Assembly: GCA_000993025.1 (NCBI GenBank)
Contig: LBVJ01000001.1
Coordinates: 29,699-93,698, forward strand
Direction: 5' to 3'
DNA from: Candidatus Woesebacteria bacterium GW2011_GWA1_38_8
Lineage (GTDB): Bacteria > Patescibacteriota > Microgenomatia > UBA8517
DNA: 64,000 nucleotides
Below the pieces are notes generated by a model, which made no database searches, had not been told where the DNA came from, and worked only from the letters and a program-made list of their open reading frames with translations. This document shows positions 6,129-48,683 of this stretch, piece by piece. How positions within the stretch are numbered: the first letter of the stretch is position 1; the number at the start of each line of letters is the position of its first letter. Made by a program: the position numbers and the translations under genes.

Positions 6129-9065
6129 ATGGACAATAAAAAACCCTTTTATGACCCCGTTGATTCGAAAGTGAATTTTGTAGAACAGGAAAAACAACTT
6201 TTAAAGAACTGGTATGAAAAAGGGGTTGTAAAAAAGTATCTGGAAAAAAATAGTACTTCAGAAAAATACTTCTCATTTTTAGACGGGCCAATTACAGCAA
6301 ACAATCCGATGGGAGTTCACCATGCATGGGGAAGAACGTATAAAGACATCTGGCAGAGATATAAAAATATGAGGGGGTTTAAACAGAGATTTCAAAACGG
6401 TTTTGACTGTCAGGGATTATGGGTTGAAGTGGAGGTAGAAAAAGAACTTGGTTTTACGAATAAAAAAGATATCGATAAATATGGAGTTGCCGAATTTATT
6501 CAAAAATGCAAAGACCGTGTAAACAAGTATTCATCCATTCAAACCGATCAAAGTAAGAGGCTCGGGAACTTTATGGATTGGGATAACTCTTATTTCACGA
6601 TGAGTGATGAAAATAATTATATGATCTGGCATTTTTTAAAGGTCTGCTACGAAAAAAAGTTAATCTATAAAGGGAACGACGTTGTTCCTTGGTGTTACCG
6701 CTGTGAAACTGCGATATCTGAGCACGAAATTTTGACCGAAGATTATAAAGATGTTGAACATGCATCGATATATTTTTGTCTTCCTCTGAAAGACCGCGAT
6801 AATGAATATCTGCTTGTTTGGACAACTACTCCATGGACGATCCCTGCCAATATCGCTGTATCCGTTGATGGAAAAGGCGACTATTCACTAATTGAATTTG
6901 ACGGAAAGAAATATTGGATAATGGAAGCTTTAAAAACTGCAGTGTTTAAAGAGGGGGGAACTGTTATTAGAACGGTTAAAGGTAGCGAACTTGTCGGGCT
7001 TAAGTACACATCTGCTTTTGATGAACTTCCTTCAAATCAAGCATTTATGAATGATAAATTATTTCATACGGTTGTCTCCACAGATGCGATGATTATGCCG
7101 ATATCGGCAGAAGAAGGAACGGGGTTGGTGCACACTTCAACAGGAACCGGAGGAGAAGATCACAAACTCGGTAAGAAATTAGGACTTCCTGTTATGCCGG
7201 CAATCACTGACAGCGCGGATTACCTTGATGATTTTGGATCATTTGCAGGACAGAATGCAAAAAAGCATCCCGAATTGATAATTGATCACTTAAAAAGTCA
7301 TAACGGTGGAGATTTTCTATTTAAACTTCATCCGTACAAACACCGCTATCCCGCGTGCTGGAGATGTAAGAGCGAACTTGTCTGGAAACTTACCGATGAA
7401 TGGTATATCGCGATTGATCCTGTGAGAGAAGACATGAAAAATTTAGCAAAAAAAATAAAATGGATACCATCTTTTGGATTAAAAAGAGAGTTGGACTGGC
7501 TTTCGAATATGCATGATTGGCTTATCTCCAAAAAAAATCGGTATTGGGGTTTGGCTCTTCCTATTTGGGAATGCGATTGCGGACATTTTGAAGTAATAGG
7601 GGGATATGATGAATTGAAGAAAAAAGGGATCGAAGGATGGGAAATATTTGAAGGACATACTCCGCACAAACCTTATATAGATAAGGTTAAGATAAAATGC
7701 GAAAAATGTGGAGAATTGATGTCCAGGGTTTCTGATGTTGGAAACCCATGGCTCGATGCGGGGATAGTTCCATTTTCGACGGTTTCTAAAGATAACAGAT
7801 CAGATCCATTATACACCAGCAACAAAGAAGAATTTAAGAAATGGTTCCCTACCGATTTTATTACCGAAAGTTTTCCCGGACAATTTAAAAATTGGTTCTA
7901 CTCGGTACTTGCAATGAGTGCGATCCTTGAAAATGAGATTCCTTATAAAACAGTACTGGGATTCGGAACAGCCCTTGCTGAAGACGGAAGGCCTATGCAT
8001 AAGAGTTGGGGGAACTCAATAGAATTTAATGAAGCCTCAGAAAAAATTGGCGTTGATGTGATGAGGTGGATCTATTGCAAGCAAAATCCTGCTGATAATT
8101 TGCTTTTCGGATACAAAACTGCCGATGAAACCAGAAGGAGTTTTCATCTGATGCTTTGGAATATTTATAACTTTTTTGTGACTTACGCAAATCTTGACGC
8201 CTGGAAGTTCGATGATAAGAAAAGGGTGAATTTTGAAAATCTACTTGATGCTTGGATACTCGCGCGCTTAATTGAGGCTGTAGACGTTGTTACAAGCAGT
8301 CTTGAAAAATATGACGCAAAGACAGCGGTTGAAGGAATCGAATTTTTCGTTTCCGATATATCCTTATGGTATATCAGAAGATCCAGAGAGCGGGTAGGAG
8401 TCAGTGCTGAAAATGGCGCTGATAAAGACAATTTTTATGCTGTTTCACGGTTAATATTGGTAAATTTATGTAGAATTATGGCTCCGTTTACGCCGTTTTT
8501 GGCAGACGCTATATTTACAAATCTTACTAAATTACCGTCAGTTCATTTGACCGATTGGGTTGACGATGGTGAATTAAAAAGCTGGAAAGAAGATTTAGGC
8601 GGAGATGGGGCTATTGGAATATTGGTTAGGGAAATGGATCATATAAGACAGGTCGTTGAAATGGGGCATTCCTTAAGAAAAGATAAAAACATACCCGTAA
8701 GACAGCCACTTTCCGAAATCATAGTATATTCAGATCAAGATGTTAACTCAAGATTATACGATCTTATCTCCGCTGAGTTGAATGTTAAAAAAGTTTTATG
8801 GATCAAATCAAAGGAATTCAAAGTTGGGTTGAATACGATTATCTCTCCCGAACTTGAGGAAGAAGCGAGGACGAGAGAACTTATCAGAAAGATCCAAAAC
8901 GAAAGAAAGCAAAGCGGTGTTGATCTATCAGACATGATCAATGTAAAAAGCGAATGGCTGCCGGAAAATAAAGAACTTCTAAATCTTATAAAAAGAAAGA
9001 CACTTGCTGATAATATTCAAATATCCGGTTCGTTCGGAATAGAAAAAATTAAATTGAAAAAGTGA
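6129..9065 (+). CDS. ileS: Isoleucyl-tRNA synthetase (class I aaRS with CP1 editing domain)
   Basis: 978 aa. HIGH-region variant (PMGVHHAWGRT); editing-domain motif WTTTPWTIPAN; zinc knuckles (WCYRCETAI, CEKCGE); KMSKS-like HKSWGNS. Ile/Val/Leu family; the long N-terminal region and C-terminal layout favour IleRS. Confidence 0.8.
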   Translation: MDNKKPFYDPVDSKVNFVEQEKQLLKNWYEKGVVKKYLEKNSTSEKYFSFLDGPITANNPMGVHHAWGRTYKDIWQRYKNMRGFKQRFQNGFDCQGLWVEVEVEKELGFTNKKDIDKYGVAEFIQKCKDRVNKYSSIQTDQSKRLGNFMDWDNSYFTMSDENNYMIWHFLKVCYEKKLIYKGNDVVPWCYRCETAISEHEILTEDYKDVEHASIYFCLPLKDRDNEYLLVWTTTPWTIPANIAVSVDGKGDYSLIEFDGKKYWIMEALKTAVFKEGGTVIRTVKGSELVGLKYTSAFDELPSNQAFMNDKLFHTVVSTDAMIMPISAEEGTGLVHTSTGTGGEDHKLGKKLGLPVMPAITDSADYLDDFGSFAGQNAKKHPELIIDHLKSHNGGDFLFKLHPYKHRYPACWRCKSELVWKLTDEWYIAIDPVREDMKNLAKKIKWIPSFGLKRELDWLSNMHDWLISKKNRYWGLALPIWECDCGHFEVIGGYDELKKKGIEGWEIFEGHTPHKPYIDKVKIKCEKCGELMSRVSDVGNPWLDAGIVPFSTVSKDNRSDPLYTSNKEEFKKWFPTDFITESFPGQFKNWFYSVLAMSAILENEIPYKTVLGFGTALAEDGRPMHKSWGNSIEFNEASEKIGVDVMRWIYCKQNPADNLLFGYKTADETRRSFHLMLWNIYNFFVTYANLDAWKFDDKKRVNFENLLDAWILARLIEAVDVVTSSLEKYDAKTAVEGIEFFVSDISLWYIRRSRERVGVSAENGADKDNFYAVSRLILVNLCRIMAPFTPFLADAIFTNLTKLPSVHLTDWVDDGELKSWKEDLGGDGAIGILVREMDHIRQVVEMGHSLRKDKNIPVRQPLSEIIVYSDQDVNSRLYDLISAELNVKKVLWIKSKEFKVGLNTIISPELEEEARTRELIRKIQNERKQSGVDLSDMINVKSEWLPENKELLNLIKRKTLADNIQISGSFGIEKIKLKK

Positions 9066-13990: not shown

Positions 13991-14044
13991 GGACCCGTAG
14001 CTCAGCGGTATAGCGTTCGCTTTACATGCGTATACAGAAACGAT
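13991..14044 (+). pseudogene. 5' half of a tRNA-Val(UAC)-like gene (acceptor, D and anticodon arms only; no T arm)
   Basis: GGACCCG-TA-GCTCAGCGGTATAGC-G-TTCGC-TTTACAT-GCGTA folds as acceptor 5' strand + D arm + anticodon arm (anticodon TAC). It stops 11 nt later, directly abutting the intact tRNA-Val. A sequence complementary to its acceptor (CGGGTCCA) lies at 14221-14228. Confidence 0.4.
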
Positions 14045-14118
14045 GCTCGCTTAGCTCAGTTGGTTAGAGCGTACGATTCACATTCGTGAGGTCCCTGGTT
14101 CGAATCCAGGAGCGAGCA
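14045..14118 (+). tRNA. tRNA-Val (anticodon CAC)
   Basis: Cloverleaf: GCTCGCT/AGCGAGC acceptor, GCTC-AGTTGGTTA-GAGC D arm, TACGA-TTCACAT-TCGTG anticodon arm (CAC), CCTGG-TTCGAAT-CCAGG T arm, discriminator A. CCA not encoded. Confidence 0.85.
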
Positions 14119-14381
14119 CAAACCTTGTAATAATTAAACGTTTTCGTTTCAAATAACCACCCTTATTTAAACGAGAAGGTCGTTGGAAGTGGCACCAAGT
14201 TTCACTTGGACGAGACCAACCGGGTCCACAAATTATGGCTGGTGGGGCGTTCGCTTCATATCCGATACCCCCTAAGTCCACAGAATAGATTTTGCAACCA
14301 TAAAATATTTACAGTGTTATATTTTTAAGAAATACTATTGTGCTGATGCGTATTTATGATGTATAACTATATTAATTAATT

Positions 14382-47023: not shown

Positions 47024-47603
47024 TTGATCTTGTAAACACATAGGACATATTCGTAATGGTTGTAATATGATAATTATATTTACTCAATATACGAGTAATA
47101 TATTTATTCATATTTAATTTCTCTCCCATATCCTCTCTCTCAAGGCAGATTACTTCAGGGCTGATTTCTTCTTTGAGAAATGCTTTTACGATCGAATAGC
47201 TTAAACCTTCAGCATCAATATTCAAAAAATCAACCTTTATATTTTTAATAAATTTCTGATTTATATATTTAATACTTTTAACAGTACACACTTCGGAACG
47301 TATAAATTTTGATTGTCCTGACGTAATGACCGCTTTATAATTACTATAATTGAAAGTATTTAGCGCTTCATCTTCGAATATGTAGTATTTTTTAGAGTCA
47401 TTTTTAATACCTAATGCGAAATTCAGGTTAATGTCGCGTTTTCTTGCGATCTTAAATAACTTAATATTATTTTCATTAGGCTCAATGTTAATTCCGCTCC
47501 AGCCTTTCTGGTATAGCTTCTGAGTGTTTGAAAATTTATAAGGATGAAACGCACCAATATCTACATAAAATCCGTCCTTTTTATCCCTAAATATTCTCTC
47601 CAA
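47007..47603 (-). CDS. FkbM-family methyltransferase
   Basis: FYVDIGAFHPYKFSNTQKLYQKGWSGINIEPNENNIKLFK matches the FkbM-domain N-terminal motif (DIGAN.G..T....GW.G...EP). Confidence 0.6.
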   Translation of the reverse strand: MERIFRDKKDGFYVDIGAFHPYKFSNTQKLYQKGWSGINIEPNENNIKLFKIARKRDINLNFALGIKNDSKKYYIFEDEALNTFNYSNYKAVITSGQSKFIRSEVCTVKSIKYINQKFIKNIKVDFLNIDAEGLSYSIVKAFLKEEISPEVICLEREDMGEKLNMNKYITRILSKYNYHITTITNMSYVFTRSTISQR

Positions 47604-47790
47604 GATAAGATAAATACCGGTCTATGATCAAATCTTCCCCATCTTGGGAATAACTGGTATTCCAGTATAAAAAAGGTAGGTTTAGATGGCAGGATATATA
47701 CGATTTTATTATTCTTGAAGTAATATTTGTCATTAAAGATGTTGTTCAACAAAGAATTAAATAGTATAATTCCGTATATTTTATAATTTA

Positions 47791-47934
47791 TGGGGTCATA
47801 ACACAACGTTATGCCTCCACTACGTGGGGTCATAACAACCTCCGCTTTGCGGAGAACGTTGTGCCCCTAAAACAACTTTTGGGGTCATAAGAACATCTGC
47901 ATTGCAGATAACCTTGAGACCCCAAACAAACTTT
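47791..47934 (+). repeat. Three decayed tandem units, each beginning with the tRNA-Asp 5' acceptor sequence (T)GGGGTCATAA and carrying its own hairpin, directly abutting tRNA-Asp
   Basis: Units at 47791, 47825 and 47881 all start GGGGTCATAA(C/G)A, like the tRNA 5' end at 47935. Internal perfect hairpins differ but are compensatory (CTCCGC-ttt-GCGGAG vs ATCTGC-att-GCAGAT). Units 2 and 3 end in GTGCCCC / GAGACCCC, quasi-complementary to the 5' GGGGTCA. Confidence 0.5.
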
Positions 47935-48008
47935 GGGGTCATAGCTCAACTGGTTAGAGCGCTTCCCTGTCACGGAAGAGGTTGCGGGTTCGAGTCCCGT
48001 TGACCCCG
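47935..48008 (+). tRNA. tRNA-Asp (anticodon GUC)
   Basis: GGGGTCA-TA-GCTC-AACTGGTTA-GAGC-G-CTTCC-CTGTCAC-GGAAG-AGGTT-GCGGG-TTCGAGT-CCCGT-TGACCCC-G; anticodon GTC. Confidence 0.9.
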
Positions 48009-48021
48009 CAAATAAAAATAT

Positions 48022-48047
48022 CCTCACTAAAGTGTGAGGTATTTTTA
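48022..48047 (+). terminator. Rho-independent terminator after tRNA-Asp
   Basis: CCTCAC-taaagt-GTGAGG stem-loop followed by TATTTTTATT. Confidence 0.5.
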
Positions 48048-48091
48048 TTCGTAAAACGGGACGAGAAGTTTATGGTGAGCCAGCCGAACCA

Positions 48092-48114
48092 AGTCCCGTT
48101 GACCCCGCAAATAA
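48092..48114 (+). repeat. Direct repeat of the tRNA-Asp 3' end (att-like)
   Basis: AGTCCCGTTGACCCCGCAAATAA at 48092-48114 is identical to 47993-48015 (last 16 nt of the tRNA plus 7 nt). 23/23 identity, 76 nt apart. Confidence 0.6.
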
Positions 48115-48160
48115 TAATTTCTCCTTATTTTAGGTAATTTTTATATATTATAATTAAGCC

Positions 48161-48517
48161 ATGAAAACAAATGACTTTGGTTTTTGGGTTTCTTTAGAAG
48201 AAATAATAAAAAGTTCATCAATATTAATTGACCGACCCAAAGGTACAGCCCATCCAAGATATTCAAGTTTTATTTATCCAGTAGACTACGGTTATCTAGA
48301 AGGAACTACTTCCATGGATGGGGGTGGAATTGATGTTTGGAGAGGGACTGGAAATAATGGCTTTGATTCAATACTTTGTGTGGTTGATGGAATTAAAAAA
48401 GATTCAGAGATAAAAATTTTAATTAATTGCTCCGAAAAAGAAAAACAAGAAATATTAAAATGTCAGAATTTTGGAAAAATGAAGGCAATATTGATATATA
48501 AATTTAATGAAGATTGA
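48161..48517 (+). CDS. Hypothetical small protein with family-I inorganic-pyrophosphatase-like core motifs (truncated/divergent)
   Basis: 118 aa. DRPKGTAHPRY...YPVDYGYLEGTTSMDGGGIDVW parallels PPase EIPKGS.NKYE...YP.NYGFIP.T...DGDP.DVLV, but the protein is ~60 aa shorter than a PPase and lacks several catalytic Asp/Lys positions. Confidence 0.3.
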   Translation: MKTNDFGFWVSLEEIIKSSSILIDRPKGTAHPRYSSFIYPVDYGYLEGTTSMDGGGIDVWRGTGNNGFDSILCVVDGIKKDSEIKILINCSEKEKQEILKCQNFGKMKAILIYKFNED

Positions 48518-48683
48518 TAAAACAGGTTCTAACTGCGTCAATGGTTCGCCACCTTCGTCTCGCTGAAGCTCAACTTCGGCTATGTGAAACCCGCTTACAT
48601 TAAAATTTCAGCAAGGTAAAACCCTTTTATAGATAGCGAGAAATGCAGATTAAAGTTGCTCTAGGTTTGATATAATCAATTTA

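Follow-up and report, generated by a model that had tools for sequence, protein, structure and literature searches.

SegB, a free-standing GIY-YIG homing endonuclease encoded in the tRNA gene cluster of phages T4 and T6, cuts within that cluster and drives tandem amplification of tRNA genes together with segB through short homology between a tRNA 5' end and the segB 3' end (PMC2330249; PMC13096335). In Patescibacteria, group I introns are found at position 35/36 of tRNA-Asp and tRNA-Asn genes, and the tRNA-Asp genes of these bacteria are often hit by selfish insertions (PMC13011429). Here, we analyzed a tRNA-Asp gene flanked by partial copies of its own ends in a 64-kb stretch of DNA (the window) from a Rifle-aquifer Candidatus Woesebacteria genome. 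Three short units (U1-U3), each opening with the tRNA 5' end, precede the gene and a displaced copy of its 3' end follows it. The same type of layout recurs in other bacteria of the candidate phyla radiation (CPR), where it may hold a gene for a small GIY-YIG protein. By analogy with those loci, we tentatively consider the repeats in the window to be footprints, devoid of an open reading frame (ORF), of insertion of a tRNA-linked, SegB-like GIY-YIG cassette or of break repair, a plausible reading that is held with some reserve.

The tRNA-Asp gene of the window is intact and functional. Rfam reveals no intron in it, the gene is uninterrupted, its discriminator is G73 and CCA is absent from the gene. 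The gene opens with TGGGGTCATAG, while TGGGGTCATAA, composed of the base preceding the tRNA and the first 9-10 nt of the tRNA, opens each of the three upstream units (at 47791, 47825 and 47880). U2 and U3 are 55-nt tandem copies (78% identity) built to the same design: a 10-pair outer stem starting from the first G is separated by an AAC/AAC internal loop from a 6-bp inner stem, which is capped by a 3-nt loop. Their inner stems are CTCCGC/GCGGAG and ATCTGC/GCAGAT, and the 3' strands are GTGCCCC and GAGACCCC. U1 corresponds to U2 minus the inner hairpin (22/24 identical). The linker AAACAAACTTT of U3 doubles as the 5' leader of tRNA-Asp, and U3 is a near-palindrome with 24-nt arms that are 79% complementary, TTT of the leader included. 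All three units form hairpins of much higher stability than shuffled sequences (U1, -11.5 kcal/mol, z -4.5; U2, -24.5 kcal/mol, z -6.0; U3, -22.6 kcal/mol, z -6.7), and U2 scores 80.8 bits against the covariance model of the unit (R1). The initial annotation had likened the units to tRNA minihelices. The likeness goes no further than a resemblance: the units have not retained the discriminator base, and they are near-palindromes into which the leader extends. We also considered whether they might be degenerate copies of tRNA positions 1-30, and abandoned this, since the likeness past 9-10 nt is not significant. Two TATAAT hexamers lie upstream of the units, the second ending 5 nt before U1, and none occurs between the units and tRNA-Asp. 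The hexamers were not called by the consensus promoter scan, which requires a -35 box.

On the other side of the gene, the exact 23-mer AGTCCCGTTGACCCCGCAAATAA is present twice in the window (0 expected by chance). The repeat begins in the T loop, at A58, and extends to 28/30 identity; the two copies are separated by a 76-nt spacer that encloses a terminator-like hairpin. Within the spacer, AACGGGAC pairs with the T-stem strand of copy 2, which gives the displaced 3' end the appearance of a T arm whose loop has received an insertion of ~30 nt. Two further ideas about this region were rejected: duplication of the whole trailer after each 23-nt copy is not significant past ~30 nt, and the core of a hammerhead-like structure does not fit the TGAGC..GAA motif. 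Much of this anatomy had been pointed out in the initial annotation, including the three units that open with the tRNA 5' end, the perfect 6-bp hairpins with compensatory changes and the acceptor quasi-complements in U2 and U3, and the exact 23-bp 3'-end repeat with its 76-nt spacer and enclosed terminator hairpin. Every coordinate and detail that it gave for tRNA-Asp and the repeats is correct, and the pattern is real and non-random. Feature positions are collected in Table 1.

Table 1. Features of the tRNA-Asp locus (positions in the window)
Feature	Positions	Strand	Details
Two TATAAT hexamers	47765-47770, 47782-47787	+	inferred tRNA promoter region, read from sequence
U1	47792-47824	+	GGGGTCATAA, then short hairpin (47792-47818)
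U2	47826-47879	+	hairpin (47826-47867), then linker TAAAACAACTTT
U3	47881-47934	+	hairpin (47881-47923), then linker AAACAAACTTT
tRNA-Asp(GTC), intact	47935-48008/9	+	ARAGORN; Rfam tRNA, 72.3 bits
Direct repeat, copy 1	47993-48015	+	tRNA positions 58-73 plus 7 nt of trailer
Terminator-like hairpin	48011-48049	+	core stem 48022-48039, T run 48040-48046, flanking A/T extension; terminator scan, fold
AACGGGAC (48055-48062), then insert GAGAAGTTTAT-GGT-GAGCCAGCCGA-ACC-A	48055-48091	+	inverted repeat, fold
Direct repeat, copy 2	48092-48114	+	displaced tRNA 3' end; also left border of the pyrophosphatase block
Conserved single-gene block	48115-48553	+	small inorganic-pyrophosphatase-like gene (48161-48517), then degenerate tRNA-like 3' segment (48525-48553)

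Within the population the locus does not vary. Ten contigs from independent assemblies that encode an identical neighbouring protein are base-for-base identical to the window over 47740-48165, and contigs L268 and L272 are identical over the part that they cover. Both the number of units and the 76-nt spacer are invariant across these 12 contigs. The nearest other species in the sample, Woesebacteria GW2011_GWA1_39_21 (L059), has a single unit in the corresponding position and lacks the 3' repeat. The presence or absence of an insert between the repeats among relatives, suggested in the initial annotation as a sign of a mobile element, was therefore not found: the 12 contigs are identical, and L059 is without the repeat. 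The outer stem of the L059 unit is conserved, while its inner stem is changed at 4 of the 6 pairs, all of them compensated. Taking U2, U3 and the L059 unit together, 97.9% of cells pair and 6 of the 16 pairs are changed on both sides; none of 500 shuffles reaches the pairing of the unit, and slid controls are ~40% paired. This covariation is based on three sequences from two species, two of which are paralogues in one locus, and all of which are palindromes. Among the eight relatives examined that have the same tRNA 5' end (GGGGTCATAGCT), L059 is the sole carrier of the unit. Over 21 units, the sense strand is more stable in 12 (Wilcoxon p = 0.24, not significant), and G-U pairs number 36 on the sense versus 19 on the antisense strand. 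In the Rfam search, only the tRNA passes the gathering threshold, and nothing credible appears at E up to 10. The scan of viral contigs for the unit pattern produced two chance matches, neither of which folds, and the metagenome scan with TGGGGTCATAANAAC produced at least 120 matches, and those listed are all of the chance kind.

The layout is not unique to Woesebacteria. Scanning one genome per species with the anticodon arm of the window tRNA yielded 120 loci, nearly all from Patescibacteria. In these loci (window included) we counted exact 11-mers of the tRNA 5' end up to 400 nt upstream and exact 13-mers of the 3' end up to 400 nt downstream. Upstream 5' copies were detected for 10 of the 107 tRNA-Asp, 3 of the 42 tRNA-Gly and 1 of the 13 tRNA-Met genes, and for none of the 23 tRNA-Thr and 10 tRNA-Val genes. 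The corresponding numbers of downstream 3' copies are 9 (Asp), 1 (Gly), 0 (Met), 1 (Thr) and 1 (Val). With alignment scoring, ~20 tRNA-Asp loci have a 5' copy and ~13 a 3' copy, compared to 4/228 for shuffled flanks. The 5' copies always bear the species' own acceptor sequence (GGATCCG, GGAGCCA, GGATCAG or GGAGCCG). In Peribacteria (at tRNA-Asp) and in other lineages (at tRNA-Gly genes), ORF-less units share one common design, in which a tRNA 5' segment is followed by an apical GC hairpin, a strand complementary to the 5' segment and a short leader; the sequence of the apical hairpin is different in every species. The 3' copies begin in the anticodon loop or the T loop. They are displaced by 39-283 nt, except for a single copy at 783 nt (the loci span up to 8 kb), a case that contains no integrase-sized ORF. 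Two loci (L124 and L090) resemble simple tandem duplications of part of the tRNA plus its flank. In L133, a near full-length copy is located ~60-116 nt 3' of tRNA-Asp; its D and anticodon arms are each swapped for a perfect GC hairpin, and the T arm, the acceptor strand and CCA are retained.

In some CPR genomes the same layout includes a protein-coding gene. Three loci (L044, L058 and L099) display the order tRNA-Asp 5' fragment, hairpin, GIY-YIG ORF and intact tRNA. The fragment is ~310-330 nt upstream, and the gap encodes a ~85-aa GIY-YIG catalytic domain (Pfam E-values from 1e-14 to 3e-18). The ORF starts shortly past the fragment (directly past it in L044), and in L044 and L099 it ends in TAG at tRNA positions 8-10. 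We constructed a hidden Markov model (HMM) from the three ORFs and used it to search the sample. This revealed 11 GIY-YIG ORFs (in L033, L044, L047, L054, L058, L078, L095, L099, L112, L115 and L136), every one of which is on the same strand as a tRNA gene and either overlaps it or is at most 160 nt away. As 16% of the sequence is that near a tRNA, the 11/11 linkage has P = 2e-9. The tRNA partners are Asp (8 ORFs), Gly (2) and Met (1), and five of the ORFs are just downstream of tRNA-Asp. One of the 11 loci, L054, has the order tRNA-Asp, perfect palindromes (CCA plus the last 10 nt of the tRNA), GIY-YIG ORF and displaced 3' fragment.

A second sample (loci L258-L263) consisted of database homologues that were not conditioned on tRNAs. 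Out of the four that were looked up, three (P0127, P0129 and P0133) end inside tRNA-Val(CAC), whose T8-A9-G10 is the stop codon. Upstream of each of these three is a tRNA-Val 5' fragment that carries a D-loop hairpin, TTACCCG...CGGGTGAA, and the tRNA-Asp cassette of L044 contains a hairpin of the same family. In L258 and L260 the fragment is a close match to the adjacent tRNA; the L261 fragment is more diverged. Duplications of tRNA segments border both the window locus and the ORF-bearing cassettes of L044, L058, L099, L054, L258 and L260, with the diverged 5' fragment in L261. The Bacteroidota homologue of the nuclease (Marinifilum, L275) is not located beside a tRNA, so the tRNA linkage is not universal for the protein family. 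We also observed a degenerate tRNA-Val copy 3' of the intact tRNA-Val in L258 (1822-1960), with the TTACCCG...CGGGTGAA hairpin in its D and anticodon loops. In another CPR lineage (L014:189-829 and L015), a 79-aa GIY-YIG gene is directly 5' of a pyrophosphatase-like homologue, with no tRNA near.

The displaced 3' end in the window shares one more feature with other species. A stem-TGAGCnnAGCnGAA-stem motif abuts AGTCCCGT at the displaced tRNA-Asp 3' end in the same position in the window, L120 and L023, and in L120 and L023 the displaced fragment begins at A58, as it does in the window. In L023 the tRNA-Asp 3' end is present three times, with a 130-aa ORF between copies two and three. The motif matches nothing in Rfam or in the literature. 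Its sites are 48073-48089 in the window, L120:531-580, L023:5880-5900 and 6553-6570, L130:1690-1760 and 2410-2470, and one after tRNA-Arg in L269. In several CPR genomes it often occurs beside tRNA 3' ends as inverted pairs of the type GTCATCC-TGAGCGAAGCGAA-GGATC.

Copy 2 of the direct repeat is followed by the pyrophosphatase block, and the surroundings of this block vary. In relatives with at least 90% identical protein, the block is located behind different tRNAs or pieces of tRNA: tRNA-Ser(GGA) in L273 and L274, tRNA-Ser(CGA) in L269, and fragments of tRNAs in L270 and L271. A 12-nt direct repeat of the tRNA-Ser 3' end, TCCTCCGCCAAG, brackets the gene in L273 and L274. The downstream neighbours of the block also vary among relatives, and the contigs of several relatives stop at or just short of the tRNA region upstream of the pyrophosphatase gene. 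Some of the joins could be assembly chimeras, although at least two contexts were seen in independent samples. Since the contexts of the block differ among close relatives, the locus is strain-variable at slightly greater divergence, and the description of the region as a hotspot in the initial annotation is fair. Synteny through the ~70%-identity pyrophosphatase homologues (L011-L016) was of no use for the tRNA-Asp comparison, as no tRNA is near them. The tRNA-Asp gene also has the neighbours that had been claimed for it, namely tRNA-Gly, tRNA-Thr, LysM, FNR-like and FkbM genes (ARAGORN, Pfam). At 47539-47611, the window differs from the otherwise identical contigs L001 and L004 by a 75-nt patch of many indels and substitutions, which splits the FkbM methyltransferase ORF (198 + 90 aa versus 236 aa in L001 and L004); contigs L008 and L009 start a few bases from this patch.

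Elsewhere in the window, two parts of a second, different tRNA-Val (13991-14231) enclose tRNA-Val(CAC) (14045-14119). The 5' part (13991-14030) has the acceptor GGACCCG and the anticodon TAC, whereas the 3' part (~14186-14231) reads AGGTC-GTTGG-[29-nt insertion]-CCAAC-CGGGTCC-A, with the insertion in the T loop. ARAGORN and Rfam recognise neither part on its own, and the two were rejected as a split functional gene, as ARAGORN calls no join between them as a tRNA and the 3' part has the 29-nt T-loop insertion. The nesting is the same layout as that of the tRNA-Asp locus, again with an insertion in the T loop.

How could such a locus have arisen? We suggest that breakage with repair, or insertion, took place repeatedly at the tRNA gene and would have left non-coding footprints. 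In the nuclease-bearing versions, the incoming DNA would bring a replacement tRNA end, so that the tRNA would stay whole and the old end would remain as a fragment. A 5' fragment would stay upstream, beside the promoter, and a 3' fragment, starting from the T arm, would stay downstream, each bearing hairpin insertions in the former D loop or T loop. The window has no nuclease gene, and three upstream near-palindromic units and one displaced 3' end would be what is left. Each unit consists of the first 10 nt of the tRNA, an apical hairpin and a strand pairing back onto those 10 nt. Since promoter-like hexamers occur solely before U1, transcription probably includes the units in a 143-nt leader that RNase P would remove, and the local hairpins may prevent the extra 5' strands from pairing wrongly with the tRNA 3' strand.

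Several observations weigh against this account. The GIY-YIG genes are connected to the window only by analogy of layout, and the HMM, applied to every ORF of 40 aa or more, detected no GIY-YIG ORF in the window or in L059. No ORF-bearing form of the Woesebacteria-type unit was found either, and the covariance model of the unit (run with filters off in the window) has no further match in the window or among 100 CPR loci, L059 excepted. The fragments next to the GIY-YIG ORFs measure 19-34 nt, and the units are like the tRNA over its first 9-10 nt only. The ~85-aa CPR proteins correspond to the catalytic domain only, their nuclease activity being predicted from sequence, and a nuclease-bearing allele would have to spare its own intact tRNA copy. 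Finally, double changes preserve the unit hairpin in two species, so that the units could be functional and not debris.

This last point leads to the possibility that the units are functional structured RNA, either as part of the tRNA-Asp precursor or as small RNAs freed by RNase P, with a role in the control of processing or stability or as decoys with a tRNA-like acceptor end. The extent of pairing, the double-changed pairs, the folding z values of -4.5 to -6.7 and the identity of the sequence in the 12 contigs all agree with such a role, as do the excess of G-U pairs on the sense strand and the fact that the units open with a leader-plus-5'-end junction, which RNase P would recognise. However, the unit is missing in 7 of the 8 relatives with the GGGGTCATAGCT 5' end, its copy number differs (1 in L059 versus 3 in the window), Rfam contains no match, no further copy was found, and the difference in sense-strand stability is not significant. 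Moreover, the covariation comes from only three sequences, two of them same-locus paralogues. The units are near-palindromes including the leader, as fold-back copying would make them; fold-back copying or templated repair of a palindrome gives paired changes without selection on RNA, and the paired changes are therefore no proof of RNA function. We regard a functional RNA as unlikely. Another explanation involves neither a mobile element nor a nuclease. Local replication errors (slippage or template switching at a heavily transcribed, structured tRNA gene) would have produced partial duplications, both tandem and inverted, that later drifted. It accords with the head-to-tail arrangement of the units and their regular 55-nt period, with the near-palindromic U3 and its leader, with L124 and L090, and with the 3' repeat, which passes the tRNA end into the trailer (28/30) and fits local duplication better than foreign DNA. 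What it does not account for are the GIY-YIG genes in the same layout, all sampled ones of which abut tRNAs, the non-tRNA motif that three species have in common by the displaced 3' end, and the 76-nt spacer, which copies nothing nearby. We consider local replication errors to be an improbable origin, to about the same degree as a functional RNA.

The region from the T loop to the tRNA 3' end is the classical sublocation for integrase attachment sites. The initial annotation took the 23-nt repeats for the attL/attR signature of a tyrosine-integrase element, probably a lost one; such an element would have entered tRNA-Asp at its T loop and then have disappeared almost completely. The repeat is exact and runs from A58 in the T loop to the tRNA 3' end, like classical attachment sites, and rearrangement beside tRNA ends is seen in relatives. 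Nevertheless, we find this origin very unlikely. There is no integrase among the ten ORFs nearest to the tRNA (42.9-52.1 kb, Pfam), and the spacer, invariant in the 12 contigs, has no cargo. The short distances of the displaced 3' copies in other CPR loci argue in the same direction. Viral contigs with this tRNA 3' end were not found (the one match, in a high-GC phage ORF, is due to chance), nor did the viral scan for the spacer motif give a match. Integrase sites also leave the 5'-end units unexplained, and in other CPR genomes the same layout holds a GIY-YIG nuclease gene, not an integrase. The preferred reading, in which the repeats are footprints of a GIY-YIG cassette or of break repair, can also be taken considerably further, to a version that we think is rather doubtful. 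CPR bacteria might be hosts of a hitherto undescribed class of selfish cassettes nested in tRNA genes, each with a minimal (~85-aa) GIY-YIG nuclease, which would depend on the tRNA promoter for its expression and on T8-A9-G10 of the tRNA for its stop, and with a replacement tRNA end that would let the essential gene survive invasion. In that case the hairpin-bearing fragments would be working parts: they might act as target-site disruptions or decoys against recutting, or as hairpin RNAs released by RNase P. The same borders might shift single cargo genes (here the small pyrophosphatase) among the 3' ends of different tRNAs, and the window might be the immune end-state, devoid of an ORF, of such a cycle.

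Taken by itself, the window has modest practical consequences: its tRNA-Asp gene is intact, with repeats that would be non-coding leftovers whose present function is uncertain. If the cassette or repair origin is true, tRNA genes of ultra-small bacteria are repeatedly attacked by very small nuclease cassettes, each restoring the gene that it splits, which would provide a route to disrupted, nested and fragment-flanked tRNA genes in bacteria. It would also help to explain the assembly breaks at the tRNA region upstream of the pyrophosphatase gene, and would add minimal GIY-YIG enzymes with a predicted target, the DNA of tRNA genes. For annotation, it would follow that a partial tRNA copy with a hairpin next to an intact tRNA is, on its own, no evidence of a prophage or an island.

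In our literature search we came across neither an account of CPR tRNA genes with a fused GIY-YIG gene nor one of units made of a fragment plus a hairpin. The text on the Patescibacteria introns contains none of the terms 'duplicat', 'GIY', 'truncated' and 'pseudogene', and 'fragment' appears solely in its methods (PMC13011429). Those introns occur in the same phylum and the same tRNA as the locus described here, but the tRNA in the window is uninterrupted; in the ORF-bearing tRNA-Val cassettes, the 5' fragment is broken at the anticodon loop, which may be compared with the group I intron site. Repetitive extragenic palindromic (REP) sequences, bacterial interspersed mosaic elements (BIME) and elements resembling miniature inverted-repeat transposable elements (MITE) are similar to the window units in that the latter are short tandem near-palindromes (43-55 nt), and also to the CPR loci with paired GTCATCC-TGAGCGAAGCGAA-GGATC palindromes by tRNA 3' ends. 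Unlike REP or MITE elements, the U units are not dispersed over the window or the 100 other loci searched, their only other occurrence, in L059, being at the same position. With the integrase attL/attR sites of prophages and islands the window has in common a direct repeat of a tRNA 3' segment starting from the T loop and, in the proposed account, a tRNA that stays intact through a replacement end supplied by the incoming DNA. It differs in that no integrase is near, the repeats enclose 76 nt, 5' copies are present as well, and the fragments have hairpin insertions in their loops. SegB is like the CPR ORFs in being a GIY-YIG gene beside tRNA genes; the CPR ORFs, too, reach into the tRNA 5' end, and partial copies in tandem are found there. 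The two differ in that SegB is phage-encoded and has a DNA-binding domain, while the CPR proteins are chromosomal ~85-aa catalytic domains and predicted nucleases, and the window has only the repeat layout, without a nuclease gene. The known kind to which the locus may be compared is that of free-standing homing-endonuclease cassettes with tRNA-end duplications, of which the window would be a relic only.

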